Of a DNA stretch of 64,000 bases, positions 1 to 36,426 are shown one piece after another; positions within the stretch are counted from its first letter, which is position 1, and each line of letters begins with the position of its first letter. Source of the stretch: Antedon mediterranea (Eukaryota > Animalia > Echinodermata). The notes below the pieces were generated by a model. That model made no database searches, was not told where the DNA came from, and saw only the letters and a program-made list of their open reading frames with translations. The translations under genes were made by a program, and so were the position numbers. The stretch spans positions 14,036,171 through 14,100,170 of the forward strand of contig NC_092678.1 in the NCBI RefSeq assembly GCF_964355755.1. The letters run 5' to 3'.

Positions 1-52
1 TCAACTAATCCCGTCGGACAAAATAGGACATTCATCGATACATTGCAAAAAC

Positions 53-847
53 ATGAAAGTGCACTTGGACGACGTTCGCCAAACCCTGGTTCCCGATGGA
101 TTTTCTAGCAAATATACCTACTACGTGGTACTGACCGACTGCGACATGACGGAGACGGATCAAAATCTGAACTACAGGCTGTTGATCGTGTACGACGGCC
201 GCTCCAACGGGGCAGATGTTGGACGTTACTTTAACCTAATCACAGTCTCGTCCGTGTGGAAAGAAACCGAAGTGTTGAAGGTTCGTCCTTACACACGAAA
301 CGAAGAAGACACAGTGTGGATGCCGATGGTCAATCGGACCAGTTTAAATGCGGCCATCGACCATTTCGCCGAATCTTCAAAAGAAACCTCTCTAGAACTT
401 TCGTTGGACGGCTACACGGATGACCGAGTCGACATGTCAGTCGGCTTGCGATTGATGAGCTGGGACTCTTTGACCACCTTGTTTCTGCTAAATTCAATAG
501 TGGACGAAGGTTTTCTTTCTGTTGTCATGTCGGAACATCCGAACCTGAACACGATAACGATAAAGAATTGCGAAGGTGATCCGTTCGGTGAGATGGAAAC
601 GAGCCCCAACACCGCACTGAGGCATTTGAACCTGATCGAAATGAATATCGACGAGGCAGGCATGGCTGAATTCATGACACCAATCATCAACGTCGTCAAG
701 TTAACTTTACATAATATGTGTTTCTTCGACGAACGTCTTTTCGCTAAACGATTGTACGAGACATCCGGCTATCGTTGGCTCGATTGTGAGTATGTCCGCG
801 AGCCAGGCGTATTGGTTCCCATTGAGATGTTTCTTGAAACGGGTTGA
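53..847 (+). CDS. 264-aa protein with degenerate C-terminal leucine-rich repeats
   Basis: Intronless ORF; LxxLxL-like motifs about 25 aa apart (SLTTLFLLNS, NLNTITIKNC, ALRHLNLIEM, NVVKLTLHNM); AATAAA at 921-926. Confidence 0.7.
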   Translation: MKVHLDDVRQTLVPDGFSSKYTYYVVLTDCDMTETDQNLNYRLLIVYDGRSNGADVGRYFNLITVSSVWKETEVLKVRPYTRNEEDTVWMPMVNRTSLNAAIDHFAESSKETSLELSLDGYTDDRVDMSVGLRLMSWDSLTTLFLLNSIVDEGFLSVVMSEHPNLNTITIKNCEGDPFGEMETSPNTALRHLNLIEMNIDEAGMAEFMTPIINVVKLTLHNMCFFDERLFAKRLYETSGYRWLDCEYVREPGVLVPIEMFLETG

Positions 848-994
848 AGAAATCGATTTTTTTATATAACAAGTATACATAACATGTGTTTATAATAATA
901 ACAAAACAAAAATGTTCTGTAATAAAAATGATATTTATTCGAGAAAAAGAATTATTAAAAGAAAAAGCAAATGCATTCTATATTTTTTTTTTTT

Positions 995-1729
995 TCAATC
1001 ATGATGAATTTGAAATATTACAAATGTCTTCATTACATCGTCTTTGTCAGCTTCTTCTTCACTCTTCTTTAGACGGAATCTTTCGGAAATGCGAATGTCG
1101 TCCGGAATATCAGATGTAGTGAATTTAGAATATTCTTGTATGAGCTCCGGTGTCATGTGGGGATGTAATTTCTTCATGATAAATTTATATTCCTTTTGCA
1201 TAGCCATCTGCGTGCCTGCTATAAACGACTTTGGAAGAGGAGAGAGTCCCTGTGGAACGTAAATGTTCTCTACTACATCATGATAGAAAGTTGTCAAGAC
1301 TTCCCTCTTTCCTGTCTTTGTAAAATCGTAAAACTGTACAATTACGCCTTTGATGTATTGCAACCGAATTCCTTGCAGATACTCGTCCAATTCCTCAATG
1401 AAATACGTAGGCCTACGTCGACCAGTGTATGCGAATTCTATATTCGCTCCCTGGAGTAGATATGCGATCATCATTTTCAATATCGGTTTTCCTAACAAGT
1501 CCGTGTGTGCTATCGTTGGATGAAAGTCCATACTTTTCGAAATCCGGACATCCGCTTCCCCCGGAATGTACCATTGATGGTCATAATAAATTTCGTGAGT
1601 GGTATGGTCTGTGTAAACGTCTCGATGTACATCGTAGCCTTTGATCAACAGAATTCGTTTAAATCTCCCTTCAAAGTATTCTGTTCTTTGAATTCTCAGC
1701 TTTTCAGTTACTGATCTTCGCAGCATCAT
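995..1729 (-). CDS. 244-aa hypothetical protein
   Basis: Long intronless ORF, TATAAAA about 45 nt upstream (1771-1777, minus strand), AATAAA at 934-939 (minus); convergent with the LRR ORF. No family recognised. Confidence 0.7.
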   Translation of the reverse strand: MMLRRSVTEKLRIQRTEYFEGRFKRILLIKGYDVHRDVYTDHTTHEIYYDHQWYIPGEADVRISKSMDFHPTIAHTDLLGKPILKMMIAYLLQGANIEFAYTGRRRPTYFIEELDEYLQGIRLQYIKGVIVQFYDFTKTGKREVLTTFYHDVVENIYVPQGLSPLPKSFIAGTQMAMQKEYKFIMKKLHPHMTPELIQEYSKFTTSDIPDDIRISERFRLKKSEEEADKDDVMKTFVIFQIHHD

Positions 1730-1888
1730 TTCCCGTTTTGTTGTGCTTTTTTTTCTGTTAAAATTTCTCTTTTTATATCTACCATTTCCCTCGCCCCCCC
1801 CCCCCCCATAATAGCCTAATGTATGTGTGAGTGTGAGTGTCCAAAGACGCGCGGCGACGTTTAGTTTGCATCCTATTTTACAAAAGAG

Positions 1889-1916
1889 ATATGTGTCGTG
1901 TCACCACAAAAGGAGC
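1889..1916 (-). promoter_or_regulatory. 28-bp upstream motif, copy 1 (GCTCCTTTTGTGGTGACACGACACATAT)
   Basis: 24/28 identical to 3189-3216 in inverted orientation; followed by a G-run, TATA and the 244-aa ORF. Confidence 0.5.
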
Positions 1917-2428
1917 TTTGGGTTGAAATTATTTTTTTTTTTTTAAATTATTATTATAATATTAATCTCCATTCTTTAAGCTTTCTAAAAAAAATAATGT
2001 AACTTGCTTTATAATTTATTTCAAGGCAATTAAGATATGACCCTATTTCAACCAAGAACTTCCGAATTCAATAGATTACTTCCGAATTCAATAGATTATC
2101 AACAATTAGAAAACAGCCTTTTAAGTTCAGTGGACCATTACATTGGTTTTATTCAATAACCACAACACATTCGCCTTGGATACCATTAGTTATTATTACT
2201 GAATCTACATGAAATTTTAAACACTTAAACAATGAATACGAGTATAGATTACACTTTAATTTCTTTCAATTTTATTATCATCTTCATATATAAAATACAA
2301 CAATTAAAAATTACATAATTATGTTGATTAATGGATTATTTTGAGCACACACAATCTGTTAACATAACTCACTTCTACTCTAGATCATGATTAGGCCTAT
2401 ACAAATTCTTACACATTCTTCTTCGTTT

Positions 2429-2560
2429 TCAATAACTATCCTCGCCGTCAGAATCTTCGTCGTCTATCCCCATCATCCAGGCTTTAGCATTAGCAAGAAG
2501 GCTAGCATTTAAAGCGTCAGCTATGACTTTTTCCGATCGTTCATTATCAGAATTAGACAT
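2429..2560 (-). CDS. Possible 43-aa acidic small ORF or truncated gene
   Basis: MSNSDNERSEKVIADALNASLLANAKAWMMGIDDEDSDGEDSY*; a GC-richer island in an AT-rich spacer; short, so may be chance. Confidence 0.3.
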   Translation of the reverse strand: MSNSDNERSEKVIADALNASLLANAKAWMMGIDDEDSDGEDSY

Positions 2561-3188
2561 TTCTATTAATTATATCAAACTATTAATTTGAATGATGCAA
2601 AAGAATTATAGTATAGTTTATTAAAAGATTGTAAATTATAACACTAAAGTAGGACAATAATGTAGTAGCACACTGTAAACCTCGTGCGAACAGCTTACCA
2701 AGGTAGTAAACAATACGTCTACGCACGTTCACAAGTGATTGACCAATCAGAGGACGCGATTAGTCCCTTTTGTTTGGCTGTATTTAAGGCCGAAGCCTTT
2801 ATAAAAGTGATTGTGATTGGACTATGATTGCATATTTAAATGTTTATTCATGATATTCTGAAAGATGACGTTACAAGCTTTAAAACCATACCAGTTGTGA
2901 CAATGTTTGGAAAGGCGGGAACATTCGATTGAAAAATAAGGTAGATGATTTTTGGCCGGCCGTTTACGGCTGAAATAGTCAGAATTCCACACAAAACCTT
3001 ACAATATTGTCTATAAAAAAACGTCAAAATGTATGTATTTTGGAACAAAATTAAGTTTTAAGGACAAGTAAACTATAATAGTTGAATATGTCGAATATGT
3101 AAGAAAAAAAAAATTATTTTAAATTGACTATTCCAACATTCAAAGCTAATTATAGCAATATTATAGCTTTTGCGACACAAGGCCGGCG

Positions 3189-3216
3189 GCTCCTTTCGTT
3201 GTGACGCGACCCATAT
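3189..3216 (+). promoter_or_regulatory. 28-bp upstream motif, copy 2 (GCTCCTTTCGTTGTGACGCGACCCATAT)
   Basis: Inverted copy of 1889-1916; followed by a G-run (~3227-3240) and TATAAG (3281-3286) but no convincing ORF. Confidence 0.5.
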
Positions 3217-3789
3217 AGACGCGCGCGGGGGGGGGGGGGGAGATGTGGAGAACGCATTAGTAATGCTTAACATCAGTTTCTATAAGAGCGAGATGAGAGA
3301 GAGAGATAGAGAGAGAGAAAAACAAAAACAAAAAAATGTGCTGTATCAAATTTATTTTCTTTTATTAATCCATAAGAAAGTGACAACATTAAAATAAAAG
3401 TGAATTACATACAAAAAGTTTTGCATTTATTTATTTGGAATTACACCTTTAGATCGGTAGCACACTTAGCACAAAGGTGCATCCTTCACAATATAAAATA
3501 TAACAATTAACAGAAAAGTAAAAAAAGGCAAAAGCAACTATCCTACCCCCCCCCCCCCCCCTCAATTTACATCGATACATACAGTAGATCATTACTTTAC
3601 ACAAATGAATACAAAACAAGATATAGTAAAAGTGTACAAAATAAAATCAACTGATAAACACAGCTTATTACGTAAAAACCCCAACCTCTCCTCCCCCCCC
3701 CCCTTTTTTTTTTTCAATTTACTTAATGTAGCAATGTAGATAACATAGTTGCATTGCAGTTAAAGTTTGGTGCTGTATATATACAATTT

Positions 3790-4305
3790 TTAAATGTCGC
3801 ATACGCACAAGATTTCTATCGACATCGGCTCATATACTGCCGCGTCTACATTACATCGTTGAAAGCACTCATCCGATACGGGAATAGTTTCTGGATAACC
3901 AAACAGAGCGGGAACGCACCTTCCCACGTTTTCACCTAATGGAAAAAAGCAATGAGAACCAAACAGATCGCATCCATCATTGTCCGGTACGAGAAGCCAT
4001 TGATCATCAGCCGATCGGTTTAGGCTACACGTTTCTAAAGAATATTTCATACCGTCCCATCGATCGCATTCATCACAACACGTAACAATATGAGTACCGT
4101 CTTCGATGATGTCAATGCACGCATATTTTTCGCTCTCTCTAATGCATGCGTCGTGATATAGAAACGGCGATACTCCGTCAACGTACACCGATCCAATTAA
4201 CAAGTCCGGACGTTCATCGATGCACATTACACAACGATGGTGGTAAAGTAGTAGTAGTAATATGAGTAGTAGTAGTAAAATGTGTTTCAACGCCTCTGTA
4301 TCCAT
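3790..4305 (-). CDS. 171-aa secreted cysteine-rich protein, possibly cystine-knot cytokine/growth-factor-like
   Basis: Leu-rich signal peptide (ILLLLLILLLLLY), about 15 Cys, internal CVP and C-terminal CxC (ILCVCDI). Fold assignment is inference. Confidence 0.7.
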   Translation of the reverse strand: MDTEALKHILLLLLILLLLLYHHRCVMCIDERPDLLIGSVYVDGVSPFLYHDACIRESEKYACIDIIEDGTHIVTCCDECDRWDGMKYSLETCSLNRSADDQWLLVPDNDGCDLFGSHCFFPLGENVGRCVPALFGYPETIPVSDECFQRCNVDAAVYEPMSIEILCVCDI

Positions 4306-6439
4306 GCGTCACAATTGGTTCTGATGTAAAGCGATACCAACGAAAACAAAGGCCAATGTCTTGTCTCATTATGTTCTGTAACGGGCATGCAAACGTGATG
4401 AAAATGTTTTGAGAATCCACTTCGTATAGACGCTGATATGACGTGTGACGGAGGACGAGGTCCGGCGTTTTCAAATTTTACGAACCTGTTCAATTTGGTT
4501 GGAGCCATAGAATGCCAAGACCTTGTTGCCGGGTTGTAACCGCCAATCATGCGTGGTATTCCGTCTAATACGTCGTAAAAAAAGGAAACTTTACGGTTGA
4601 TCTGACTTTTTGCCTGAACCACGGGCCGTGTTTTTCATTACGTTTGAAAACATGTTCATTGTTGACAACAAAAATGTGTCCACTGTCGTGTATAAGCGAC
4701 GTGTTTTTGTCCAAGTGTCGAATGTATGATTTGGCAAAATTATCAACGAAACGAGACGGAAGTATTCTGTTCGGAATGTCAACGTCGGCCATCAATTGGC
4801 TCGAGATTATTGAAAGCTTAGAAACAACCGTTTTAGGCTCAGCTCTAGTGCACATGACGTTGCCGATAGTGAACAGTTCGATTTCACCGTTTGACTCGTT
4901 TCCTTTGCACCATTTACTCGAGTAATAACGATACGTCGTATTGAAAGCAAACCACTCTTTTCGTATCGTGTCATACACGAATCCATATTTTTCAGTATCG
5001 CATCTACTCGTGTCGGTTCCTAGAAAGTCTAACATGTCAGTCGGTGCGCCGGTTTCGAATCTACCACCAACAAACACTAGCAATCTATCCAGAAAACAAA
5101 ACATTTGCATTCCACAACGATGCCGGCAAACGACAGGCATTTCGCCAATTTTAGTCCATTCTGCTATACCGCCCTTGTTCAGGGTTTCTCTGGTGCACTC
5201 GTACACTTGAAAATCTGTTTCAAAGACGGCGTACAGTGTGTTCTTGTTACTCGTGCAACTTAAAACGCCCTTTATTGTTACGTCATGAAACAATGGTCGA
5301 ATGACAAGTATGGTTGTACCTGTGAACGCGTGATTCATGTACACGTCACCGGAAGAAAGAACGGTAAAAACAGATGCGTTCGGTGTGTCCTGACAGGCAA
5401 GTTGACGTTCCGGTGGTCGAGCAGACATTTTCAAGAGCGTCTTGATTCTGTCGGTGGTTCGTAAATCATCGACGACGACGTTGTTGTTGTGTTCGTTCAT
5501 TCTATACGGCGAGAATACGGACGAGTCGAGAAGAATGCCCATGCTTGTCGCGTTGATCTTGTTGTCGGGCAATGATGCAACCCATACGGTCACTAACCGA
5601 TTCACGTCTGCATTGTAACCGCTTTTGCGAGCGTTTCGACTCAGTAATTTGTCAAAGAAACATGGCGGAATCTGAGACATCCACATGGAAATCAAATCTG
5701 GTTTCTTAACAAACAAATCGTGAATGAGCGGTGCCCAGAAAATCAACGAATCGGCAATGACACTCGATATTGCGTATGCTTTTTCCCGTTGGATTGTCGC
5801 GTGAATCAATTGGAGTACAACTGCAGTTCTAATCGGATCAAAAAACATTACTGTCGCTTCTTTCGAAATTGTTTCAATTGTATCCGTTGAGATTTTTGGG
5901 AATACAATGCCTGTGTTTATGAGCATTTGCTTGATTTTATCCAGAGCAATTGTATTGTTCAAGTACACAGACAGTTTTGTAAACGAAACGATGTTTTCAA
6001 TTGTAAACGGTTCATTTCTTTTGGTAAAGTTGTTTACGGCGTTTGCGTCCAACCATTTCGGTACTTTATACCAAATGTTGCCGCTTACTTTATCTTTTAC
6101 AAAATGAAGATTTCTTATCTTATTTTTTGAGTCGTCGTGTTGTACTCTGTACGACGAATCGGTATCACGTTCCAAAAACCCGTCGTCGTATACATCACCT
6201 GTATGCTGCTGCTGCTCCGGTTGAACTTCAGTCTCCGAATCAATTTCGGGCACGTTATTCGGCGGCCGTTGAAATATTTCATAATTTAAAGGTGTTACGG
6301 TAGCAGATTTTGCTAACGTTGAAGGTCCATCATCATCATCATCTTCATCATCAGATGATATCCACACAGTATCAAGTTTTCTTACTTTCTTACTGTCTTC
6401 GTGACGTTCATTAGAACCGTGCCTGCGTCTGGACGCCAT
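4287..6439 (-). CDS. Divergent BACK-Kelch-like protein, split by a -1 frameshift near 4577-4583
   Basis: Likely ATG at 6439 (MASRRRH); BACK-like segment (FFDKLLSRN...VNRLVTVWV); Kelch motifs LLVFVGG and VYDTIRKEW; the overlapping ORF 4287-4622 continues with DVLDGIPRMIGGYNPATRSWHSMAP, a Kelch repeat. Confidence 0.7.
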
Positions 6440-6492
6440 CGCAATACTACAGCAACACGCACGCACACACACAATATGATCGCTAATATTAC

Positions 6493-6825
6493 TCACTTCA
6501 ATAACTGCTTAAGAAATGTGGTTAACGTTTCAGAATATTCCTCCTTGTTTTTACTGGAACTAGCAAATTCACGTGCAACGTGAAGTGTGACAATAATGCG
6601 GCCCTCATTCACGTGGCCGTCTTCAAACATGCCCACGAGCAGATCGTGTAATGACTTGGCGCTGCGACATTTCACCTTATCAACTTGATTCTTGATTTCA
6701 GTTTTCAATTCTGCGTTGCTAAATGTTTCCGGATATTCACGTTCAACTTTTTCCTCGTTTTCCAAATAATTTTTGGCCAAAACGATCAATTTATCAACAT
6801 CAAAACCACCGTTTCTCTTTAACAT
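6493..6825 (-). CDS. Short Bcl-2-like protein (110 aa from ATG 6825)
   Basis: BH1-like MFEDGHVNEGRIIVTLHVA (canonical LFxDGxxNWGRIV); TATAAAT at 6881-6887 (minus); no clear BH2 or TM before the stop. Confidence 0.7.
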   Translation of the reverse strand: MLKRNGGFDVDKLIVLAKNYLENEEKVEREYPETFSNAELKTEIKNQVDKVKCRSAKSLHDLLVGMFEDGHVNEGRIIVTLHVAREFASSSKNKEEYSETLTTFLKQLLK

Positions 6826-7003
6826 CTTGTTCAACAATATTTCTTTTTTTGAAGTGACTTTCTCGTTTATACGCACATCAATTTATAGTACCGGAATGAT
6901 TCTCTGTCAACAATCCCGTTTGTACGGTTCCGGTCTAGGATTTGCGTTTGTGATGACCGCTATGTTATGTAAATGAGCCTGTGCAGCTGGTGTATTAATA
7001 ATT

Positions 7004-7009
<6 letters not shown>

Positions 7010-7046
<37 letters not shown>

Positions 7047-7053
7047 ACACACA
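7010..7053. repeat. (CA)n microsatellite upstream of the death-domain gene ATG
   Basis: Direct reading. Confidence 0.9.
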
Positions 7054-7071
7054 CGTTTCATAAGTTTGGTT

Positions 7072-7696
7072 ATGGATTCAGAACAGGGCTTAATTGGAGA
7101 CCAGGGGTATGCTACGTCTAAAGCCAAAAACTTGGACATTAACCAGGTATCTGATGGTTTTGATGCCAAGTTGAACAATTTTAAAAGGCATGTTGCCGAG
7201 GAGTCATATTCAGCATTGAAACGTGCTCGGTCAGCGCATTTCAACGATGAATTAAAGATAGTGTATGAAAACAACGATCAGAGTGAAACGCTCACCGAAG
7301 GTATTATGATTCTTGAGAAATGACAAAAATTAAAAAATTTAAAAAAATAAATAAATAAATAAATAATTTATAATAGCTTATTTTTTTTATTATTTTTTGT
7401 GTGTTTCAGATGAAGACTTTGGACCACTCACAGATCTGCGTATTTCCGAGTTGGCAAGAGAGCTGGGCAATGATTGGTCAATGATAGCAACATATTTAGG
7501 AATTTCACTCGCTCAACAACAAGATTTACGTCAGGCTCATTACATTTGTAGTCGGGAACGTAATCAAGAAATGCTTGTTATATGGCGCAAGAGAGATTCA
7601 TGCTGCCAAAAATCAGACAAACTACAATCATTAATGAATGCATTGGAAAAAAGTGGAAGAATCGACTTAAAAAACAAAATCAGTCTATGGCAATGA
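7072..7696 (+). CDS. Two-exon death-domain protein, join(7072..7300,7410..7696)
   Basis: GT(7301)...TTTCAG(7409) intron with T-rich tract joins the two ORFs in frame (G|AT=Asp); exon 2 is a typical death domain (LARELGNDWSMIATYLGIS...EMLVIWR...LMNALEKSGRIDL). Confidence 0.85.
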
Positions 7697-8028
7697 AAGT
7701 CAAAACTATAGCATTCGTATTTATAAAAGGTGTACGGTAGAGTACGTTTCTTCAATAATGAATCATAGCATTCGATCTATATTAGTTTTGTTTTGAAAAG
7801 AGTTTATTAAAAAAAGAAAACACCTTTAACCGAGAACACCGTGTACTGTTATTGTAAAAAAATTTCGTTTCTAAAAGTTCACGTTCACAACAAGAAGGAT
7901 AGCGCGCAAGCAACTTGGCCATCTAGAATTCGTTCGATAATGTTTTAGAAAAAAATAAAAGCTTTACTTCGACGCCTAATGACAGCGTGCGTCAATGTTT
8001 TAAAAAAGAGAGAACATACTTCCCCCTT

Positions 8029-11000
8029 ATATACAATAACGTTTATAACTTTCCAGATCATACTTCTTTTTCTATTCGATTACAGTTTCTAATGATAGCA
8101 TACTTCAGGAATGATCCTGATTGTTCTTATATTAATTATTATACATGGTTTCTTAAATCCAAACACACTCTTATTCTAGAAAGTTCATGTAGATACATAC
8201 ACCGTCTCTTTACCGAATGAACTGATAAGGTCGTGCAATCAATAAGAGGCATAACATGCCGTGCATTCGTCGTGCGTTGTATATCGAGAGAACAAATGAA
8301 AATATTGTTTACTTCGAGAATAAGCAATACACCGTCTCTTTACCGAATGAGCTGATAAGGTCGTGCAATCAGTAACAGGCATAACATGCCGTGCATTCGT
8401 CGTGTGTTGTATATCGAGAGAACAAATGAAAATATTGTTTACTTCGAGAATAAGCAATACACCGTCTCTTTACCGAATGAGCTGATAAGGCCGCGCAATC
8501 AGTAACAGGCATAACATGCCGTGCATTCATCGCGTGTTGTATAATTATTATACATGGTTTCTTAAATCCAAACACACTCTTATTCTAGAATGTTCATGTA
8601 GATACATACACCGTCTCTTTACCGAACTAACTGATAAGGTCGTGCAATCAATAAGAGGCATAACATGCCGTGCATTTGTCGTGGGTTGTATATCGAGAGA
8701 ACGGATGAAAATCTTTTTTTTTTTTTTTTTACTTCTAGAAGAAGCAATACACCGTCTCCTTACCAATCGAGCTGATAAGGAAGGCCGCGCAATCAGTAAC
8801 ATGCATAACATGCCGTGCATTCATCGCGTGTTGTATAATTATTATACATGGTTTCTTAAATCCAAACACACTCTTATTCTAGAATGTTCATGTAGATACA
8901 TACACCGTCTCTTTACCGAATGAACTGATAAGGTCGTGCAATCAATAAGAGGCATAACATGCCGTGCATTCGTCGCCTGTTGTATATCGAGAGAACAAAT
9001 GAAAATATTGTTTACTTCGAGAATAAGCAATACACCGTCTCTTTACCGAATGAGCTGATAAGGCCGTGCAATCAGTAACAGGCATAACATGCCGTGCATT
9101 CATCGCGTGTTGTATAATTATTATACATGGTTTCTTAAATCCAAACACACTCTTATTCTAGAATGTTCATGTAGATACATACACCGTCTCTTTACCGAAT
9201 GAACTGATAAGGTCGTGTAATAAATAAGAGGCATAACATGCCGTGCATTTGTCGTGGGTTGTATATCGAGAGAACGGATGAAAATCTTTTTTTTTTTTTT
9301 TACTTCGAGAAGAAGCAATACACCGTCTCCTTACCAATGGAGCTGATAAGGAAGGCCGCGCAATCAGTAACATGCATAACATGCCGTGCATTCATCGCGT
9401 GTTGTATAATTATTAGACATGGTTTCTTAAATCCAAACACACTCTTATTCTAGAATGTTCATGTAGATACATACACCGTCTCTTTACCGAATGAACTGAT
9501 AAGGTCGTGCAATCAATAAGAGGCATAACATGCCGTGCATTCGTCGCCTGTTGTATATATACAATAATGTTTATAACTTTCCAGATCATACTTCTTATTC
9601 TATTCGATTACAGTTTCTAATGATAGCATACTTCAGGAATGGTCCTGATTGTTCTTATATTAATTATTATAGGCCTACATGGTTTCTTAAATCCAAACGC
9701 ACTCTTATTCTAGAATGTTCATGTAGATACATACACCGTCTCTTTACCGATCGAGTTGGATACGGTCGTGCAATCAATAAGAGGCATAACATGCCGTGCA
9801 TTCATCGCGTGTTGTATACCGAGAGAACAAATGAAAATATTGTTTACTTCGAGAATAAGCAATACACCGTCTCTTTACCGATCGAGTTGATAAGGCCGTG
9901 CAATCAGTAACAGGCATAACATGCCGTGCATTCATCGCGTGTTGTATAATTATTATACATGGTTTCTTAAATCCAAACACACTCTTATTCTATAATGTTC
10001 ATGTAGATACATACACCGTCTCTTTACCGAACTAACTGATAAGGTCGTGCAATCAATAAGAGGCATAACATGCCGTGCATACGTCGTGTGTTGTATATCG
10101 AGAGAACGGATGAAAATATTTTTTTTTTTTTTTTTTTTACTTCGAGAAGAAGCAATACACCGTCTCCTTACCAATGGAGCTGATAAGGAAGGCCGCGCAA
10201 TCAGTAACATGCATAACATGCCGTGCATTCATCGCGTGTTGTATAATTATTATACATGGTTTCTTAAATCCAAACACACTCTTATTCTAGAATGTTCATG
10301 TAGATACATACACCGTCTCTTTACCAATCGAGTTGATACGGTTGTGCAATCAATAAGAGGATAACATGTCGTGCATTCGTCGCCTGTTGTATATATACAA
10401 TAATGTTTATAACTTTCCAGATCATACTTCTTATTCTATTCGATTACAGTTTCTAATGATAGCATACTTCAGGAATGGTCCTGATTGTTCTTATATTAAT
10501 TATTATAGGCCTACATGGTTTCTTAAATCCAAACACACTCTTAGTCTAGAATGTTCATGTAGATACATACACCGTCTCTTTACCGATCGAGTTGATACGG
10601 TCGTGCAATCAATAAGAGGCATAACATGCCGTGCATTCGTCGCCTGTTGTATATCGAGAGAACAAATGAAAATATTGTTTACTTCGAGAATAAGCAATAC
10701 ACCGTCTCTTTACCGAATGAGCTGATAAGGCCGTGCAATCAGTAACAGGCATAACATGCCGTGCATTCATCGCGTGTTGTATAATTATTATACATGGTTT
10801 CTTAAATCCAAACACACTCTTATTCTAGAATGTTCATGTAGATACATACACCGTCTCTTTACCGAATGAACTGATAAGGTCGTGTAATCAATAAGAGGCA
10901 TAACATGCCGTGCATACGTCGTGTGTTGTATATCGAGAGAACGGATGAAAATCTTTTTTTTTTTTTTTTACTTCGAGAAGAAGCAATACACCGTCTCTTT

Positions 11001-12237
11001 ACTAATGGAGCTGATAAGGAAGGCCGCGCAATCAGTAACATGCATAACATGCCGTGCATTCATCGCGTGTTGTATAATTATTATACATGGTTTCTTAAAT
11101 CCAAACACACTCTTATTCTAGAATGTTCATGTAGATACATACACCGTCTCTTTACCGATCGAGTTGATACGGTTGTGCAATCAATAAGAGGCATAACATG
11201 CCGTGCATTCGTCGCCTGTTGTATATATACAATAATGTTTATAACTTTCCAGATCATACTTCTTATTCTATTCGATTACAGTTTCTAATGATAGCATACT
11301 TCAGGAATGGTCCTGATTGTTCTTATATTAATTATTATAGGCCTACATGGTTTCTTAAATCCAAACACACTCTTATTCTAGAATGTTCATGTAGATACAT
11401 ACACCGTCTCTTTACCGAATGAACTGATAAGGTCGTGCAATCAATAAGAGGCATAACATGCCGTGCATTCGTCGCCTGTTGTATATCGAGAGAACAAATG
11501 AAAATATTGTTTACTTCGAGAATAAGCAATACACCGTCTCTTTACCGAATGAGCTGATAAGGCCGTGCAATCAGTAACAGGCATAACATGCCGTGCATTC
11601 ATCGCGTGTTGTATAATTATTATACATGGTTTCTTAAATCCAAACACACTCTTATTCTATAATGTTCATGTAGATACATACACCGTCTCTTTACCGAACT
11701 AACTGATAAGGTCGTGCAATCAATAAGAGGCATAACATGCCGTGCATACGTCGTGTGTTGTATATCGAGAGAACGGATGAAAATCTTTTTTTTTTTTTTT
11801 TTACTTCGAGAAGAAGCAATACACCGTCTCCTTACCAATGGAGCTGATAAGGAAGGCCGCGCAATCAGTAACATGCATAACATGCCGTGCATTCATCGCG
11901 TGTTGTATAATTATTATACATGGTTTCTTAAATCCAAACACACTCTTATTCTAGAATGTTCATGTAGATACATACACCGTCTCTTTACCGATCGAGTTGA
12001 TACGGTTGTGCAATCAATAAGAGGCATAACATGCCGTGCATTCGTCGCCTGTTGTATATATACAATAATGTTTATAACTTTCCAGATCATACTTCTTATT
12101 CTATTCGATTACAGTTTCTAATGATAGCATATTTCAGGAATGGTCCTGATTGTTCTTATATTAATTATTATAGGCCTACATGGTTTCTTAAATCCAAACA
12201 AACTCTTATTCTAGAATGTTCATGTAGATACATACAC
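8029..12237. repeat. Higher-order tandem array: about 25 copies of an ~85-bp core separated by 3-4 linker types; ~833-bp higher-order unit
   Basis: Core ATACACCGTCTCTTTACCGA...CTGATAAGG...GGCATAACATGCCGTGCATT...GTTGTATA; higher-order starts near 9557, 10392, 11224, 12057; linkers contain TTCnnGAA. Confidence 0.95.
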
Positions 12238-13379
12238 CACACAAATACCTATATATAGGGGATAGGGAAAACCAATTCACGTTTTTTTTTTACTTGGAGT
12301 TGTGTTATGATGATTAAAATTTGCTGAGGCTTACTTTAATAACTACTTCTCATAGTAGTTGATAAATCGAGTCGATAACAATGACATCATCATGCCAGAA
12401 TCCAATATGGCGTCCAATTTGGCGGAAAAAACAGGGTATTGCTAACCCCGCAAACCCTTGCAAACCTACTTGTAAAAAAAAACATAGCAAACCCCACCGA
12501 ACCAACACAAAAGTGTAGTGATTGAATCATGTAGTGTACGACCCACTGGGTATATCCATGTAAAAAAAAAAATTAAATTTCTACGGTTAACTACTTATTT
12601 TTGGGGTAAAACCTCATTTTTTGGTCAAAAATGATTGCTAAACCCTGCAAACCTCCAAAAAAACATAGCAATCCCCACCGAAACAACATAATAAAAGTGA
12701 TTGAATCATGTAGTGTACGACCCACTGGGTATATCCATGTTTAAAAAAAATAAAATTTCTACTGTTAACTACTTATTTTTGGGGTAAAACATCATTTTTT
12801 TTGTAAAAAATGATTGTTAATTTTTAACCAAAAAATGATGTTTTATCCCAAAAATAAGTAGTTAATTCAGTAGAAATTTTAATTTTTTTTTACATGGACA
12901 TACCCAGTGGGACGAACACTCCATGATTCAATCACTTTTATGTCGGTTCGGTGCGGTTTTCTATGGTTTTTTTTAGGTTTTCAGGGGTTTGCGGGGGTTT
13001 AGCAATACCCTGTTTTTCCCGCCAAATTGGACGCCATATTGGATTCTGGCATGATGATGTCATCGTATCAACTTGATTCATCAACTACTATGAGAAGTAG
13101 TTATTAAAGTAAGCCTCTACTAATTTTAATCATTAAAACACAACTGCAAGTAACAAAAACTGTTAATTGATTTCCCTATCCCGTGTATGTTAATAGGAAT
13201 TTGTGTGTGTTCTATAGGCCAAAATTTAAAAGTGCCATGAAAAATTTTCCCCAAGACCCTGGGATGGGGATTTTTTTTCTGACATTCCATATGGTATACT
13301 TTATAAGAAAAACCAAAAAAACATTTTCCTATACTTTTTTCCCGCAAATGTGTATAATAATTGTTCTGCACCCAGGCTA
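12238..13379. mobile_element. Non-autonomous foldback DNA element, left arm apparently truncated
   Basis: 12238-~12815 is the inverted counterpart of ~12820-13209 (with an internal ~180-bp duplication in the left arm); the right side runs on to ...CCCAGGCTA at 13379 with no left counterpart. Confidence 0.75.
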
Positions 13380-15097: not shown

Positions 15098-15254
15098 TGA
15101 GATCTAAATGTTGAACTTTTGGGCGATCTGAGTATGGATCATTTTTGTACAATGTATCCAGTATCTTCTCCTTTACTTGACTGATGGTGTCACAGCTAAG
15201 AACTTTCACTTTTTGAAATGCACCACTGTCAGAATGTTGTATTGCATTCAGTGT
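15098..15254 (-). pseudogene. Plexin RBD exon (last plexin exon recognised)
   Basis: [52 protein letters not shown] with AG/GT borders. Confidence 0.9.
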
Positions 15255-15298
15255 CTGTAAAATAAAAATAAAATTTATTTCTAGAATATTAAGTTGTA

Positions 15299-16800
15299 AC
15301 TAGAATTTAATTCGTCACTTTGACGAATTATAGGTGATCATTTTTATCATTTTATTGACATTCATATTTTTTAAACATGCACGTATGTTAACATACAATC
15401 GGAAAATGTTGATGTATGCCATCCTATTATACGCTATAGTGCTGAGTTGTGCCTATCATATGCCATATATACATTATGTACAGTATATACTGTATATCTA
15501 TATACAGTGTAGCATTAGTGAAATTAGGGACACACATCGTGTTCTAATTTTTTGGCACTGATGACATTATCAAAATAAACTTGTGGATAACAATATCGAA
15601 AGATAAAGAATTGAGCAATAAAATATAACAATTGGAAGAAAATTTGGCACGTAGAAGCGCGGTGCACGCTCTTTAAAATTTGTATAACTTTGACGAAAGA
15701 GATGAAAAATTTGCTTTTTAACTTCAACTTGCCATATTATAACGTCACAAGATTCCATAGGCTTAATTTTTATATAAATTCATATCTACATTTAACCAGC
15801 TCTAATAATAAGTTATAAACATCAAGGTCAACTTTAATTCAGAAGAGCTGTAAGTTATTCAAATGTACCTTATAGGTGAATTTACGTAACCACAGTTATT
15901 CAAATTTTAAGACGTGATGACGTCATCAAAATGAAAATGTTGGCAACTCATGAGTAACATAATTGGTTGAGGTAGAATATATTAAAATTATAAAAGAAAA
16001 TCAATTACAGATAAGCGAGTTGCGCTCTGTTGAATATGGTAGTCTATAACAAAAGGGGAAAAAACCCTGTTTTAAAAATACATGTGGCCCAAATGATGAC
16101 ATCATTCCATTTTGTACGTCTAATGTGTATATACATTTATATCTACAACTCATTGGCTTCCATAATAAGTTAAAAAAATTGGGGGTCACCTTCCATTCTG
16201 AACAGTTATATTCATTTTAAAAAGGCCTTATTTTTTACAATTTTTAGCACTTTTGTATAATTAATGTGCGCATTTTGTCATTTTTAACGTGCTCGTATAG
16301 CACTATTTTAAGTCGAAATGGACTCAAATTTGTTGAATGTACTATGGAAGTTGAGTAGAATGCAATTTGTACCAAAAAAATGATATTTTTTACGCTTTCT
16401 ATGTACGCACGCGCAAAAACGTGTTTTTGCGCAGTAATTTTTTAAAACATGCAAATGGCCTGCTCTAAATTGATCAAAACGTAATTTTGAGCTTTTTAAA
16501 TTTTTAACGCGCTCACGCGCATGACCCTGCGTGCTCGTGCGTTTTTATTTGCTAATATTTTTACCCTTGACCTGATGTTTACGTGTAGTGAATTCATTAA
16601 TATGTGATAATTAATTATGGAGATATGATTGATATTGCAATTTCACAAAATGGCATATAAATGACGTCACGGGTGAGGGATCACGCTGAAAAGCTTATTA
16701 GGACTAAGTTAAAGTATTTGAAAGACATTCTGAAATTTTGATAATCATTGACATTAAAGTTTTTGAGATATTTGTTACACAAAATCTGTACAGAAAGAAA
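15299..16800 (-). mobile_element. Helentron/HINE-like element copy 1 (5' end missing)
   Basis: 3' end: subTIR AAATGATCACCTA, hairpin AATTCGTC-AAAGT-GACGAATT, then CTAGT. Confidence 0.75.
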
Positions 16801-16839
16801 TTGCAAAGAAACATTTTTTTTTTACAAAAACAATTTCTC

Positions 16840-18394
16840 ACTAGAATTTAATTCGTCACTTTGACGAATTATAGGTGATCATTTTATCATTTTATTGACA
16901 TTAATTAATTATTACCTGAAAACAATTTGTTTTAAACATGCACGTACGTTATAATACGATCGGAAAATGATGATACATTCCATCCTATTATATGCCATAT
17001 ACATACAGTATACCGTATATCTACAGTCTATACAGTGTAGCATAGGTGAAATTACAGGACACACATCATGTTATAATTTTTTGGTATGATGGAATTATCA
17101 AAATAAACTCTAAGATGACAATTTCGAAAGATAATGAATTGAGCAAATAAATACAAGAATTAGAAGAGAATTTGCCACGTAGAAGCGCTGTGCGCGCTCT
17201 TTGAAATTTGTAAAACTTTGACTAAAGAAATTTAAAAACTACTTTTTAACTTCAACTGGCCATATGATGACATCACAAAATCCGATCGAGTTAATTTTTT
17301 TATGAATTCATATCTACATTTCATCAGCTTTCTTAATAAGTTAACATTTTCAAGGTCACCTTTAATTATGATGAGCTGTAAGATATTAAACTGTATGGTG
17401 TAGGTGAAATTACACGACTCACGTTATTCAAGTTTTTACACGTGATAACGTCATCAAAATGAAAACGCTGACAACTTATGAGAAAGATAAATAATTAAGC
17501 AAGGACACACTGAAATTTGTGCAAAAATCGGACTCAAATAACGGAGATGCGCTCTATTGAATACGATAACCTACACAAAACGGGAAAAAAATCCACATTA
17601 TTAAATTTAAGTGGCCATTTGATGACGTAATACCATTTTGTACGTCTAATGTGTATATACATTTATATTTACAACTTATATTGGCTTCCATATTAAGTTT
17701 AAAAAATTGGGGGTCACCTGCCATTCTGAAGAGTTATATTCATTTTAAAAAGGCCTTAATTTTTACCATTTTTTGCAATTAATGTGCGAATTTTGTCATG
17801 TTTAACGTGCTCGTACAGCGTCATTTTAAGTCGGAATGGACTCAAAGTCAGAGAATGTACTAAGGATTGTGAGTAGAATGTGATGTATACATAAAATTTT
17901 ATTTTTTACGCATTTTAAGAATCGCGTGCGCAAAAACGTGTTTTTGCGCAGTAATTTTTTGAAACACGCAAATGGCCTAGTTTATGCTCTAAATTGATCA
18001 AAACTTAATTTTGAGCTTTTTAAAATTTTAAGGCGCAATTTCACGTACATGACCTTGAAACGCGCGAGTTTTTATTTGCCAATATATTTTATCTTAACCT
18101 GAAGTTTACGTGTAGTGAATTTCATTAATATGTGATGATATGATTATGTGATTTCACAAAACGGCGTATACGTGACGTCAAGGATGAGTGATCACGCTGA
18201 AAAGCTTATTATGGCTAAGTTAAAGTATTTGAAAGACATGGTAAAATTTTTGTGATCGTTGCCATTCAACTTTTTGAGATATTTGTTACACAAATTTGTA
18301 CAGAGAGAAATAAATAATAAGAATAAGAATAGGAAGAATAAAGATTTCATACAATAACAATAGGTGATCATTTTATTCTAAATGATCACCTAAT
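16840..18394 (-). mobile_element. Helentron/HINE-like element copy 2 (both ends present)
   Basis: Same 3' hairpin+CTAG; 5' end TAGGTGATCATTTAGAATAAAATGATCACCTA followed by a simple repeat. Confidence 0.8.
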
Positions 18395-18555
18395 TAAAGT
18401 AATGAATATAGTACACACACAAGAGAAAGTAAATACAGAGATTAACTCTGACTGTTTACTGTTGTTTTAATAGAAATCCATTGTGGCCATGAAATTTCAT
18501 CTAATAATGAAAATGGAATGCATGTATACAGGGAAATAGTTAATAGAATACATAC

Positions 18556-18702
18556 AATGACTTGAGGACGTTTGTCTGACTGAAGGCAATCATCAAGGTT
18601 CAATGAGTATGTAGCACGTCCAGTAATGGCATCTACTGGACCCATCTCAATCCTTAACTTCAGTGCATGGTACAGAACATACAGTGGATGCCCGGCATAG
18701 TC
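18556..18702 (-). pseudogene. Plexin RasGAP exon
   Basis: DYAGHPLYVLYHALKLRIEMGPVDAITGRATYSLNLDDCL, matching plexin AGEPLF..KGPIDAITGEARYSL; AG/GT borders. Confidence 0.9.
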
Positions 18703-18865
18703 CTGTAAAACACAATGTTTAAATGAGCAAATGGCCAAAAAGTTAAGACATTGGAACTGTAATCCATAGCCTTATGCCAAGGGTTTGAGGCTCACTTGCT
18801 CCATGGTTCTGGTGGTAGAACGAGTCTTCTTGGATAGTTAATTGTTTTTAACTGTGTGCTAGTTT

Positions 18866-21800
18866 ATTAGGTGATCATTTAGAATAAAATGATCACCTAT
18901 TGTTATTGTACAAAATCTTTATTGTTGTTTTTTAGTTATCCGCATTCAGCGGATAACTCCTTGTAACTGTCCTGTTTCATCATCTTTTTTTTCTGTATTC
19001 TTCTTTCTTTCTGTCATTTTTGTGTCACGCGTAACTCAAAAACGTGTAAACATAACATTTCATAACTTTGTCAACATATGGGCATTTATGTGAAATTGTG
19101 CACCTCCTATTTTGAATGACGTCAGAGTTGCGCAACATGACTTACGCGCGTTTTTACGAATTTCGCGTATTTAACATAGATCGATAGATAATGTTTTTAA
19201 CTGTGTGCTAGTTTATTAGGTGATCATTTAGAATAAAATGATCACCTATTGTTATTGTACAAAATCTTTATTGTTGTTTTTTAGTTATCCGCATTCAGCG
19301 GATAACTCCTTGTAACTGTCCTGTTTCATCATCTTTTTTTTCTGTATTCTTCTTTCTTTCTGTCATTTTTGTGTCACGCGTAACTCAAAAACGTGTAAAC
19401 ATAACATTTCATAACTTTGTCAACATATGGGCATTTATGTGAAATTGTGCACCTCCTATTTTGAATGACGTCAGAGTTGCGCAACATGACTTACGCGCGT
19501 TTTTACGAATTTCGCGTATTTAACATAGATCGAAAACCATATAACAATTTAATATGAAACTTGACAAAAAGTTTAAGTTATATCTTGCGCTAACTGACTA
19601 TAGGGAAAAAATGGCATGTTTTACACGAAGTTACGCGCGCACGCGCGTTTAAAATTTCAAAATGCGAAAAATCAATTTCTAATCAACTTTCTACGCGTTT
19701 CATGTAATTTTAAGCATGTAAAAAATTCCCACGCGCCCGCATTTTTTTACGCGCATGGTGCGTGCGTTGAAAACAATTTTTTTTTTGTGATTTCAGTTTT
19801 TTCAGCCTTTTCTAGTAATTTTACCAACTTTTAAACAATTTCGACTTAAAACTACGTCATACGGGCACGTTGAATTGGATAATTTACGTGCGTTTTTGAT
19901 GAAAAAGTTTAAAAATTGGTCAAAATTATGCCTTTTTTTAAACAGTCATAGATTCTAAACAACGAGGTGAACTTTTTTTTAATTACATATTCTGGAAGTT
20001 GAAGAGTTGTAGATATCGGATCATGAATCGATACGGCTAACCAGACATTGTGACGTCATCGTATGGCCACACGAATGTAAAATATAGGATTTTTGTCTCT
20101 TTCGTTATTGCTCATCATATTCAATGGAGCGCATCACGCCTATCTGTATTCCTTTTTTTCCAAGACTTTAATATTTTCTAGGTCAATCAACTATCTTACG
20201 AATGAGTTAAAAATATTTTAATTTTTATGACGTCATCATGCCTAAAAATTATAATTAACAGGGTCATTAATTTCATCTTTACAGTAAATTTTAATCTGTT
20301 ATAGCTTGTAAGAATAAAAAGCTATAATTATGATTAAAACATTTTCTGGAAGCTATTGGACTGTAGATACGAATTAATGTGAACATTTTGCCAATCGGAT
20401 GTTGTGAAGTTATCATATGGCCAGTTGAATAAAAAAAAGCCGTATTTTGATATTATGCGTCATAGTTCATCACATTTAAACGAGCACGCATCCATATTCT
20501 ACGTATTCAAATTTCTTCTACACGTTAATATGTTGTTGGTGAGATAATGTCCTTCCGAAATTGCTATCTTAGTGTTTAATTTTAATACCGTCACCATGTT
20601 AAAAATTGGAATAAACGGTGGGTCCCGTAATTTCACCTATTCTACACTGTATGTAATATGTATACAGATTATACTGTATATACACTATATGACACAAAAT
20701 AGACAGAATTCAGCACTAACAAGATATGATATTCTTCAGTTCAGGTCATAATGCCATAATCTTTTTCTGTGTGCAATATTCAAACGTATGACGTGCACGT
20801 GGCGTTTGTCGTGCGGATAACTAACTCGTCAAAGTGACGAGTTTCATGTCTAGTGTTATTATTCTTCTTTCTGTACACTTTTGTGTAACAAATATCTCAA
20901 AAACTTGAAGAGCAATGATCACAAAAATTGTACAATGTCTTTCAAATAATTTAACTTAGCCATAATAAGCTTTTCAGTGTGATCACTCAACCGTGACGTC
21001 AATAATACGCGATTTTGTGAAATCACGCTATCAATCATATCTCCATAATTAATTATCAGATATCAATGAAATTCACTACACGTAAACTTCAGGTCAAGGG
21101 TAAAAATATAAGCAAATAAAAACTTGCGTGTTTCAAGGTCATGCGCGTGAAATCACACGTTAAAAATTTTAAAAGATCAAAATTATGTTTTGATCAAATT
21201 AGAGCTTGAATTAGGCCATTTGCGTGTTTCAAAAAATTACTGCGCAAAAACACGTTTTTGCGCACGTGAATTTTAAAAAGCATAACAAATAAAATTTGAT
21301 GTATACATCACATTCTACTCACAATCCTTAGTACATTCACCAAATTTGAGTCCATTTCGACTTAAAATAGTGCTCTACAAGTACATTACAAATGACAAAA
21401 TGCACACATTAATTGTACTAAAGTGCTCAAAATGGTAAAAAATAAGGCCTTTTTAAAATGAATATAACTCTTCAGAATGGAAGGTGACCCCCAATTTTTT
21501 TAACTTATTATGGAAGCCAATGAGTTGTAGATATAAATGTATATACACATCAGATGTACAAAATGGTATGACGTCATCATTTGGCCACATGAATTTTTTA
21601 AGTAGTTTTTTTTCACCTTTTGTCAAGACCACTATAATCAACAGAGTGCAACTCGCTTATCTGTGATCGATTTTCTTTAAATTTTTAATATATTCTACCT
21701 CAACCAATTATGTTACTTATGAGTTACCAAGATTTTCATTTGGATGACGTCATCACGTCTTAAAATTTAAATAACGGTGGTTACGTAATTCCACCTACAA

Positions 21801-22377
21801 GGTAAATTTGAATACATTACAGCTCTTCTGAGTTAAAGTTGACCTCAATGTTTATAACTTATTATAAGAGCTGGTGAAATGTAGATATTAATTCATATAA
21901 AAATTAAGCCTATCGGATGTTGTGACTTTATCGTATGGCCAGTTGAATTTAAAAAGTATTTTTTTCATCGCTTTCGTAAAAGTTATACAATTTTTAAATA
22001 GCGCGCACCGCCCTTCTACGTGCCAAATTTTCTTCCAATTGTTATATTTTATTACTCAATTCATTATCTTTCGATATTGTTAACTTCAAGTTTATTTTGA
22101 CAACGTCATCATACCAAAAAATTAGAATATGATGTGGGTCCCGTAATTTCACCTATGCTACACTGTATATAGATATACACAGTACAGTATATACTGTACA
22201 TATTGTATATGGCATATAATAGGCACAACTCAGCACTATAAGCGTATAATAGGATGGCATACATCAACATTTTCCGATTGTATGTTAACATACGTGCATG
22301 TTTAAAAAATATGAATGTCAATAAAATGATAAAAATGATCACCTATAATTCGTCAAAGTGACGAATTAAATTCTAGT
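18866..22377 (+). mobile_element. Helentron/HINE-like element copy 3, with a nested related element and a 349-bp local duplication
   Basis: 5' subTIR/IR at 18866 and again near 19215; body resumes after 20854; 3' hairpin+CTAGT at ~22335-22377. Confidence 0.75.
19283..20854 (+). mobile_element. Nested HINE-like element of a second family
   Basis: 5' GTTATCCGCATTCAGCGGATAAC; 3' GCGGATAAC, hairpin CTCGTC-AAAGT-GACGAG, CTAGT; inserted in the T-rich tract of copy 3. Confidence 0.75.
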
Positions 22378-36424: not shown

Positions 36425-36426
36425 TT

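Follow-up and report, generated by a model that had tools for sequence, protein, structure and literature searches.

A packed gene island in an Antedon mediterranea chromosome as a candidate end of an endogenous large DNA virus or virus-derived element

What a densely packed group of genes is doing in an animal chromosome is the question raised by a stretch of 64,000 nt from the feather star Antedon mediterranea (contig NC_092678.1, positions 14,036,171 to 14,100,170; hereafter the window). An earlier note, made from the letters alone, had read the first 12 kb as the end of an endogenous large DNA virus or giant mobile element. Our analysis makes it fairly probable that positions 1 to 12,238 belong to an endogenous large DNA virus, or to a giant element derived from a virus, and form its host-modulating end. 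A foreign, compact, multi-copy gene family in an animal chromosome speaks for this reading, while the window contains no viral hallmark gene; what is observed are compact, mostly intronless, host-like modulator genes (the island) and related copies of them.

Gene packing and composition of the island

The packed gene island at positions 1 to 7,696 is real. Eight frames, A to H (Table 1), are packed into this interval, approximately 68% of which is coding, bearing out the earlier claim of at least six overlapping or convergent genes in 7.7 kb. ORFs A and B are convergent with 147 nt between them, and AATAAA signals for both strands (921 and 934) are found inside this gap; D and E overlap by 19 nt, and F and E as well as G and F are separated by only 14 and 53 nt, respectively. 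The island contains three stop-free frames of at least 240 aa, as compared to a mean of 0.005 and a maximum of 1 in 200 Markov shuffles, and its frames are therefore not due to chance. The host part of the window (51.8 kb) contains no stop-free frame of at least 170 aa. Of the eight frames, seven lack introns, are complete or nearly so, and gave no close match in the searches made with them. A GT-AG intron of 109 nt is located in gene H, in agreement with the earlier note, which had seen at most short introns, a spliceosomal one among them.

Table 1. Location and description of the features found in the window.
Feature	Position	Strand	Description
ORF A	2..847	+	281 aa, 5' end open; C-terminal half weakly LRR-like
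ORF B	995..1729	-	244-aa orphan, convergent with A
ORF C	2429..2560	-	43-aa acidic peptide, tentative
ORF D	3790..4305	-	171 aa, 15 Cys, hydrophobic N-terminus
ORF E	4287..4550	-	87 aa, Kelch-like motif; frame differs from F
ORF F	4565..6439	-	624 aa; acidic N-terminus, helical middle, Kelch-like motifs near residues 428-460
ORF G	6493..6825	-	110 aa, Bcl-2-like, BH1-like motif
Gene H exon 1	7072..7300	+	76 codons; unrelated to host adaptor
Gene H intron	7301..7409	+	109 nt, GT-AG
Gene H exon 2	7410..7696	+	death domain
Tandem array	8028..12238		25 copies of ~80-nt core, three spacer types
Host hairpin (foldback) repeat	12238..13207		high-copy; abuts array, 1-nt overlap
Host plexin gene	15098..55075	-	Sema, PSI, TIG, TM, RasGAP, RBD exons

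The CpG o/e ratio was found to be 1.32 for positions 1 to 7,900, 1.35 for the tandem array and 0.69 for positions 12,238 to 64,000. The difference expected across position 12,237 was thus found between these regions, but a sharp step at that position was rejected, since the adjoining repeat-rich intron reaches 1.01-1.16 in 7.9-kb windows. Similarly, the proposed CpG richness of the coding sequence holds for five frames (1.16-1.60, versus approximately 0.42 for the plexin exons); the span of H gives 0.89. TATAAA was counted 15 times in positions 1 to 8,000 versus 13.1 expected for positions 1 to 7,900, which is no enrichment; TATA boxes, previously cited as a sign of Pol II transcription, are at chance level and their counts were discarded as evidence. 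AATAAA was observed 19 times versus 13.1 expected.

Gene content and the death-domain exon

Gene H was found to match the Death profile (PF00531) with an E-value of 1.9e-10 and 41.1 bits, above the cut-off of 22.6, which confirms the death-domain gene proposed before; removal of the intron gives an open frame of 171 aa. Its death domain is 81% identical (75/93 residues) to the C-terminus of the A. mediterranea protein XP_071953500.1, and the claim that all proteins of the island are very divergent has to be abandoned. The isoforms XP_071953500.1 and XP_071953492.1 have an architecture of a TIR-like plus a death domain, and the identity of H to XP_071953500.1 starts at an exon edge, which is the apparent splice acceptor of the host gene. 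The two isoforms show a one-residue difference exactly at this edge, as expected from a tandem acceptor. H resembles both proteins in its death domain, its C-terminal end and its apparent exon start, but it lacks the TIR-like half and has its own, unrelated first exon of 76 codons. Contigs in X1, X5 and X10, three of the coded data sets, match only exon 2, showing 35-41 differences, and were taken to represent the host adaptor gene. A metagenome scan with exon 2 gave no match.

Judged from these comparisons, exon 2 of H looks like a recent capture of host DNA, presumably transferred from the host gene to the element. New in this arrangement is a death-domain exon that follows a first exon of unrelated sequence and starts at the apparent acceptor of the host gene, as a captured exon would. 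The last exon of the host TIR-like plus death-domain gene was likely captured at the DNA level, splice acceptor included, and the resulting death domain, lacking the TIR half present in the donor, would serve as a decoy within Toll/death-receptor adaptor assemblies.

Exon capture with an intron is typical of pack-type transposons. DNA-level capture with the intron kept, a multi-copy family and a window without a viral gene would all fit a giant transposon of non-viral origin (Helitron-, CACTA- or Starship-like) that picks up exons and genes of its host as cargo and has the array as its subterminal repeat. We consider such a transposon unlikely. Pack elements mostly hold fresh host fragments, whereas seven of the eight frames found here are intact or nearly so, lack introns and have no close match in the searches run. 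In addition, 18 of the 29 listed differences between diverged copies of A fall at third codon positions (p=0.0014), which shows purifying selection between these copies (for B, 2 of five listed differences are at third codon positions, which is no bias). Moreover, convergent genes with a common 147-nt gap point to long compaction, and no TIR or hairpin end of the element was found at 12,238.

Among the other genes, ORF G can with modest confidence be regarded as a putative Bcl-2 family member. It matched Bcl-2 (PF00452) with an E-value of 1.7e-4 and 22.5 bits, below the cut-off of 31.4, and TIGR00865 (NCBIfam) with an E-value of 0.0074; its top PDB matches were to Mcl-1 (E 0.06), to which the BH1-like stretch aligns. 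The Bcl-2-like assignment of the earlier note is thus retained in part, as the profile and PDB matches support it but the score lies below the cut-off and the frame ends about where BH2 would be expected to start in the Bcl-2 layout. The stop codon of G overlaps a donor-like GTGAGT. Three weak loci found for G in IMG/VR (34%, 52 residues, without BH1) were rejected; in the one inspected, the match lay inside an unrelated frame of 1,002 aa. If G is functional, it would dampen apoptosis.

ORF F is a possible BTB/BACK-Kelch adaptor, and ORF E could be either the broken tail of F or a separate small gene. F matched Kelch_2 with an E-value of 0.047 on one fragment only and gave no BTB or BACK match in a Pfam profile search, E had no Pfam match, and the Kelch label is left with weak profile support. 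No relative of F was found by a length-limited word-based homologue search or an IMG/VR scan. A single-sequence model of its residues 114-624 was of too low quality (pLDDT 36.5), and the Foldseek and VIA matches were generic and exclude no listed family. The LRR label proposed for ORF A is weak as well, with a GALA LRR match at an E-value of 0.062, no LRR match in Pfam and no match in IMG/VR and metagenome scans. If these labels apply, F (with E) and A would bring host proteins to ubiquitination.

ORF D is likely a secreted protein, given its hydrophobic N-terminus; its 15 cysteines end in CxC. A secreted Cys-rich cytokine mimic had been proposed; the cysteines and the N-terminus are consistent with the first part of this description, while the label of a cystine-knot cytokine found no profile or fold support, the IL-17-like look being a resemblance that no tool supports. 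D had no match in Pfam, PDB or IMG/VR, and its single-sequence model, likewise of too low quality (pLDDT 44), gave generic fold matches (Foldseek, VIA), which exclude no listed family. For ORF B, no homologue was found by Pfam, a length-limited word-based search or an IMG/VR scan. Its single phmmer match among 1.84 billion proteins, 31 residues of a tandem-repeat mussel protein, was rejected as a repeat-summed artefact, and its ankyrin/SOCS-like look is likewise a resemblance to which no tool lends support. Profile searches, including NCBIfam and PHROGs, assigned ORF C to no family.

Of the host-modulation set described in the earlier note, the death domain is therefore firm and the Bcl-2 assignment modest, but the labels Kelch and LRR have little profile evidence behind them and the cytokine is without support, so that the theme is firm for only two of the eight genes. 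Together, the island genes would help the carrier cell to survive and keep it quiet. The present copy may be partly decayed, with breaks in G and at F/E.

Terminal array, plexin flank and related copies

Positions 8,028 to 12,238 are a 4.2-kb tandem array and not genes. Its units of 130-262 nt have a higher-order arrangement, and the array terminates at the start of a core. The core does not recur in the host part of the window, the array motif has no exact match in IMG/VR, and Rfam gave no match in positions 1 to 15,000. The array abuts a hairpin repeat, beyond which more host repeats extend up to about 14,013. This hairpin was considered as the element's own end and rejected, as its summed depth is far above that of the island and, in X1, X5 and X8, the arm sequence continues into sequence like that from 13,188 onward. 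On these two grounds the hairpin is provisionally read as a host repeat, in which the element likely landed.

The last exon seen of the plexin gene is located at 15,098-15,254, and the C-terminal exons are absent from the window. The exons matched cover the RBD and RasGAP profiles partly (21-69 of 113 and 111-179 of 441, respectively), and none of 111 minus-strand frames in positions 1 to 8,200 and 12,200 to 15,100 matches a plexin family. With the last plexin exons missing from the window, the island is likely located in a plexin intron. The host gene with kilobase introns that the earlier note placed next to the island was thus found beyond 12,238, but the island is probably inside this gene and not beside it. 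In X10, a contig match begins at the plexin acceptor 15,254, as in spliced RNA, although contigs cannot show transcription. Island-like contigs are also present in X10, with little cover over 5,074-6,400, from which nothing can be concluded.

Other copies do exist: copies related to the island, some strongly diverged, are present in the runs of three coded organisms. In X1, some copies are almost the same as the island (99.8% over 6 listed contigs), and ORF A also occurs there as a second, diverged type; identity was 96.0% over 6 listed contigs in X5 and 96.3% over 7 listed contigs in X8. The identity of the plexin flank to X5 is 94.2%, about equal to the 96.0% of the island, which fits vertical inheritance as well as recent infection. 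In X1, contig depth was 948-1202 for the island and 983-1464 for the plexin flank, both about 4x the 284 of the inferred host adaptor exon. X5 showed 328-661 for the island, 178 for plexin and 227 for the adaptor. Contig depth does not equal copy number, and in each run the host reference is a single contig. The locus was likely amplified later together with the plexin flank.

These data also bear on two further explanations. An assembly chimera, in which free virus or other DNA was joined to a host contig via the array and the high-copy hairpin, would be consistent with a junction between two repeats and with the fact that no contig among the matches listed bridges 12,238 (the comparison covered assembled contigs). 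The junction thus stays unbridged among these matches, but related copies and the parity of island and flank depth in X1, the run in which it holds best, speak against a contaminant. Moreover, three coded organisms have runs with such copies, the death-domain exon resembles crinoid sequence and, even with a false joint, the island would be a real crinoid-associated element, which makes a chimera highly improbable. Alternatively, a fast-evolving host immune-gene cluster could have been spread by segmental duplication with no mobile element. The region is duplication-prone (a 12-kb duplication inside the plexin gene has 98-99.5% identity), island and flank share their depth in X1 and diverge similarly in X5, and H is close to a crinoid protein. 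However, the gene density, few introns and high CpG o/e of the island contrast with the plexin exons and their kilobase introns, searches with B and F found no relative even though A. mediterranea proteins were in the searched database, and the island appears to interrupt the plexin gene. A host cluster is therefore regarded as quite unlikely.

In the preferred reading, the island is the terminal accessory region of a large DNA virus or of a giant element derived from one, which would be transcribed in the nucleus. Feather-star chromosomes likely carry several integrated copies of it, the present one probably in a plexin intron. A narrower version, which we put forward only tentatively, is an undescribed lineage of integrating large crinoid DNA viruses whose array-type termini differ from those of Teratorn, Mavericks and nimaviruses. 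It would occur as several subtypes in at least two species of feather star, and the island would record how it took up an immune-adaptor exon of the host, intron included, for a death-domain decoy.

Comparison with known systems

Very little is known about large DNA viruses of echinoderms, and a literature search on them found one preprint on starfish herpes-like regions and nothing on crinoids. If viral, the element would represent a new host class and a datable snapshot of immune-modulator gain, with a genomic host exon and its acceptor placed behind a new first exon; as a non-viral giant transposon, it would be an animal example of a cargo element whose compact genes have long been conserved. 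The captured gene also identifies a crinoid signalling adaptor apparently targeted by the element. Searches of positions 1 to 12,238 with Pfam, NCBIfam and PHROGs found no polymerase, capsid, terminase, packaging ATPase, integrase or transposase; beyond the Pfam matches, NCBIfam and PHROGs contributed TIGR00865 and nothing else, and scans of IMG/VR gave no credible relative for A, B, D, F or G.

Poxviruses have a cytoplasmic replication cycle and are not known to contain spliceosomal introns. Bcl-2-like proteins and BTB-Kelch cullin adaptors are described together, as host-range genes, in the Orthopoxvirus genome (PMC3413996), but no sequence match to the island was found and the BTB-Kelch label of the island is weak. 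The Maverick/Polinton elements reported in PMC8097293 share with the island accessory gene regions beside the core and an occurrence in echinoderms. Intact vertebrate elements are described there as intronless and 12.7-24.6 kb long, and their TIRs of 46-1,447 bp end in (ACT)2 or (CT)3; the size range applies to vertebrate Mavericks, and those of invertebrates may exceed it. The arm of the island alone exceeds 12 kb without a core gene and has an intron, and neither end motif is found at 12,238, the one end visible.

Endogenous nimaviruses of crustaceans have been reported to carry apoptosis inhibitors, among them BIR proteins, expanded host-like genes and some introns, and to insert into (TAACC)n, 28S rDNA or via Ginger2 TIRs (PMC10871703). 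Host-like genes, candidate apoptosis genes, introns and a probable insertion into host repeats are common to both; the island, by comparison, has Bcl-2-like and death-domain genes and not BIR, and its flank is a hairpin repeat, at which (TAACC)n and 28S rDNA are absent. Herpesvirales-related regions, deep-branching and integration-prone, have been described as embedded in a starfish genome (10.1101/2025.04.19.649669). They resemble the island in their echinoderm host and in pointing to a large DNA virus, but their defining feature is a DNA polymerase, and none is found in the window; moreover, the main text of that preprint does not include crinoids.

Teratorn, a piggyBac-alloherpesvirus fusion of fish, is described as chromosomal and multi-copy with long repeats, a Mcl1-like gene, immune regulators and two subtypes about 88% alike (PMC5601938, PMC10175614). 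Unlike Teratorn as described there, the island is found in an echinoderm and ends in a 4.2-kb tandem array, with no transposase or herpes core gene in the window. Its visible end, which could be truncated, has no piggyBac CCYT-type TIR or TTAA and reads ...GATACATACACC into the host repeat. With Teratorn the island has in common its probable chromosomal location, multiple copies, diverged subtypes, candidate immune regulators, a putative Mcl1-/Bcl-2-like gene and long repeats.

Gene content of the island

The first 7.7 kb of the window hold eight reading frames (ORFs A-G and gene H), with a coding share of approximately 68% and one short intron of the spliceosomal GT-AG type, which bears out the packed genes and the spliceosomal intron described in the earlier note. 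There are three stop-free frames at least 240 aa long, whereas 200 shuffles gave on average 0.005 such frames and never more than 1; the 51.8-kb host part lacks any of at least 170 aa. CpG o/e was 1.32 in 1-7,900 versus 0.69 in 12,238-64,000 and 0.42 in the (approximate) plexin exons; the suggested CpG difference was therefore found, but the repeat-rich intron adjoining the island reaches 1.01-1.16, and composition thus gives no sharp island boundary. A host gene cluster appears an improbable explanation of the block. TATA boxes, previously taken as a sign of Pol II transcription, had to be dropped, as TATAAA occurs at chance level (15 seen, 13.1 expected). Between ORFs C and D (3,205-3,738), summed depth was very high in X1 and X5, two of the coded sequencing runs whose contigs were compared with the window, and this part of the island thus likely includes host repeats or stretches of low complexity.

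Features of the island and its flank (window coordinates)
Feature	Position	Strand	Description
ORF A	2-847	+	frame open at window edge
ORF B	995-1729	-	reading frame
ORF C	2429-2560	-	reading frame
ORF D	3790-4305	-	reading frame
ORF E	4287-4550	-	reading frame
ORF F	4565-6439	-	reading frame
ORF G	6493-6825	-	reading frame
Gene H	7072-7300 and 7410-7696	+	two exons, 109-nt GT-AG intron between; open 171-aa frame
Tandem array	8,028-12,238		25 copies of ~80-nt core, three spacer types
Hairpin repeat	12,238-13,207		abuts array
Last plexin exon seen	15,098-15,254	-	RBD positions 21-69 of 113

Among the protein labels proposed earlier, the death domain in H exon 2 is firm (E=1.9e-10, above the Pfam cut-off). 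The Bcl-2-like label of G is retained with caution: its profile match (E=1.7e-4) is below the Pfam cut-off, and Mcl-1 chains, aligned over a BH1-like stretch, make up 55 of 58 PDB rows but with weak E-values. Kelch and LRR labels are both weak, the sole matches being Kelch_2 on a fragment of F (E=0.047), which has Kelch-like motifs besides, and an LRR protein for A (E=0.062). With its 15 cysteines and hydrophobic N-terminal end, ORF D would fit a secreted Cys-rich protein, but it matched no family; B is an orphan for which homologue searches gave no credible relative, and the structures predicted for ORFs D and F were of too low quality for use.

The G frame ends about where BH2 would presumably begin, and E, 14 nt from F, is read in another frame; this copy may therefore be partly decayed, or these sites may be spliced. 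By eye, a 50-nt stretch (6,447-6,496) has GTGAGT...AG ends; were it spliced out, the Bcl-2-like frame would continue in phase into ORF F, and without splicing the stop of G is followed by a hydrophobic segment. The locus could encode a fusion of Bcl-2-like and Kelch-like parts, or be a tail-anchored gene that has been broken.

A host-like death-domain exon

Out of 76 candidates, the homologue search that gave a match returned a single protein, XP_071953500.1 of Antedon mediterranea; H exon 2 is identical to it at 75 of 93 residues (one gap), and H exon 1 showed no relationship to it on comparison. This points to a feather star as the likely host. This crinoid protein (XP_071953500.1/XP_071953492.1), annotated as uncharacterized, carries its death domain at the C-terminus and matches TIR weakly at the N-terminus (E=0.025), the reverse of the order in MyD88. 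Its two isoforms show a single-residue difference right at the H exon 2 start, suggesting a splice acceptor at that point. In X1, X5 and X10 there are contigs that align with exon 2 alone, at 35-41 substitutions plus one short gap, and these probably represent the host gene. The simplest reading of H is a DNA-level capture, in which the element would have acquired the last exon of the host gene in genomic form, together with its acceptor, and joined it to a new first exon; parsimony favors the direction from host to element.

The island is probably, though by no means certainly, the accessory part at the end of a large DNA virus, or of a giant element derived from one, that is integrated in the host and has its genes transcribed in the nucleus. 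Anatomy, family and exon identity were observed directly; in the predicted working, G would hold apoptosis back, H would be a death-domain decoy aimed at the host adaptor, F/E and A would be adaptors for ubiquitin ligases, and D would be secreted.

Junction, related copies and the host plexin gene

The array core has no copy within the host part of the window, and the array breaks off where a core begins, overlapping the hairpin repeat by one base. All four runs compared show this repeat at very high depth, and its arm sequence continues into sequence like 13,188 onward in three of them; it is probably a host repeat whose outer left portion the insertion pushed aside. Host minisatellites with 47-nt and ~106-nt units (36,426-36,944, 48,114-49,384 and 59,499-62,715) indicate that tandem arrays alone are nothing special in this genome.

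The whole stretch or part of it is present in ten runs, which come from 4 studies and cover three coded organisms. The search for other copies proposed earlier found both near-identical and diverged ones among the matches listed: 99.8% identity over 6 contigs in X1, which may be the source of the window and also has a second, much different ORF A type, 96.0% over 6 in X5 and 96.3% over 7, at low depth, in X8 (omitting one contig in a repeat-rich gap). Third codon positions account for 18 of 29 ORF A differences among the matches listed (p=0.0014; 40 of 524 rows), indicating coding constraint. Divergence in X5 is similar in island (96.0% identity) and flank (94.2%), which argues against a recent jump between species.

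Among the matches listed (10,567 further pieces lie outside them), no contig bridges the joint at 12,238. A chimeric joint is nevertheless very improbable. In X1, depth of island (948-1202) and plexin-flank contigs (983-1464) is similar, and ~4 times above both the likely host adaptor exon, the counterpart of H exon 2 (284), and a further 12 contigs of the joint (250-290), although contig depth is not copy number, as the tool itself cautions, and the adaptor reference is one contig per run. As a hint, this parity fits an amplification in one individual that took in island and flank together, and it argues against a contaminant. In X5, depths were 328-661 (island), 178 (flank) and 227 (adaptor exon). 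Flank region 13,943-15,219 is thus ~4 times the adaptor exon in X1 and about equal in X5, a hint that it varies in copy number.

Profile searches identified Sema, PSI, TIG, RasGAP and RBD exons of a minus-strand plexin in the host part. None of 111 minus-strand frames of at least 27 aa in 1-8,200 and 12,200-15,100 (array excluded; B and F, the two longest frames, profile-scanned separately) matched plexin families. The missing C-terminal exons indicate that the island likely lies in a plexin intron or truncates that copy, rather than standing next to a long-intron host gene as first described. Elsewhere in this gene, a ~12 kb tandem duplication (27,779-40,139 and 40,151-52,390; 98-99.5% identity) covers extracellular, TM and first cytoplasmic exons; its product could have a longer ectodomain, or the copy could be disrupted. 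Both duplicates carry a 75-115 aa frame with Cys/His motifs (31,504-31,894; 43,864-44,211), without a Pfam match and perhaps a transposon remnant. Large nested, CpG-rich inverted repeats at 15,298-22,390 in the plexin intron (arms up to 568 nt, 77-100%) are likely a young foldback family.

Comparison with known elements

The gene island itself is confirmed; its interpretation as a virus end is partly supported. None of the ends known from Teratorn, nimaviruses or Mavericks was seen at 12,238. A non-viral transposon carrying these genes as cargo is a possible but unlikely alternative. A literature search, with subscription papers sparsely covered, showed neither this element nor any large endogenous DNA virus described from crinoids. 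Teratorn (two subtypes, ~88% alike) has an Mcl1-like gene, and CCYT TIRs at TTAA targets (PMC5601938, PMC10175614), which the visible island end lacks. Endogenous nimaviruses carry apoptosis inhibitors and intron-bearing genes, like H, but insert at (TAACC)n or rDNA or have Ginger2 TIRs (PMC10871703), none of which was seen at the island's visible end. Intact vertebrate Mavericks (12.7-24.6 kb) are described as intronless, unlike the island, with (ACT)2 or (CT)3 ends (PMC8097293) that are missing here. Orthopoxviruses have Bcl-2-like and BTB-Kelch genes together in one genome (PMC3413996). While fitting none of these four groups, the island would, in its predicted working, resemble the accessory end of such elements.
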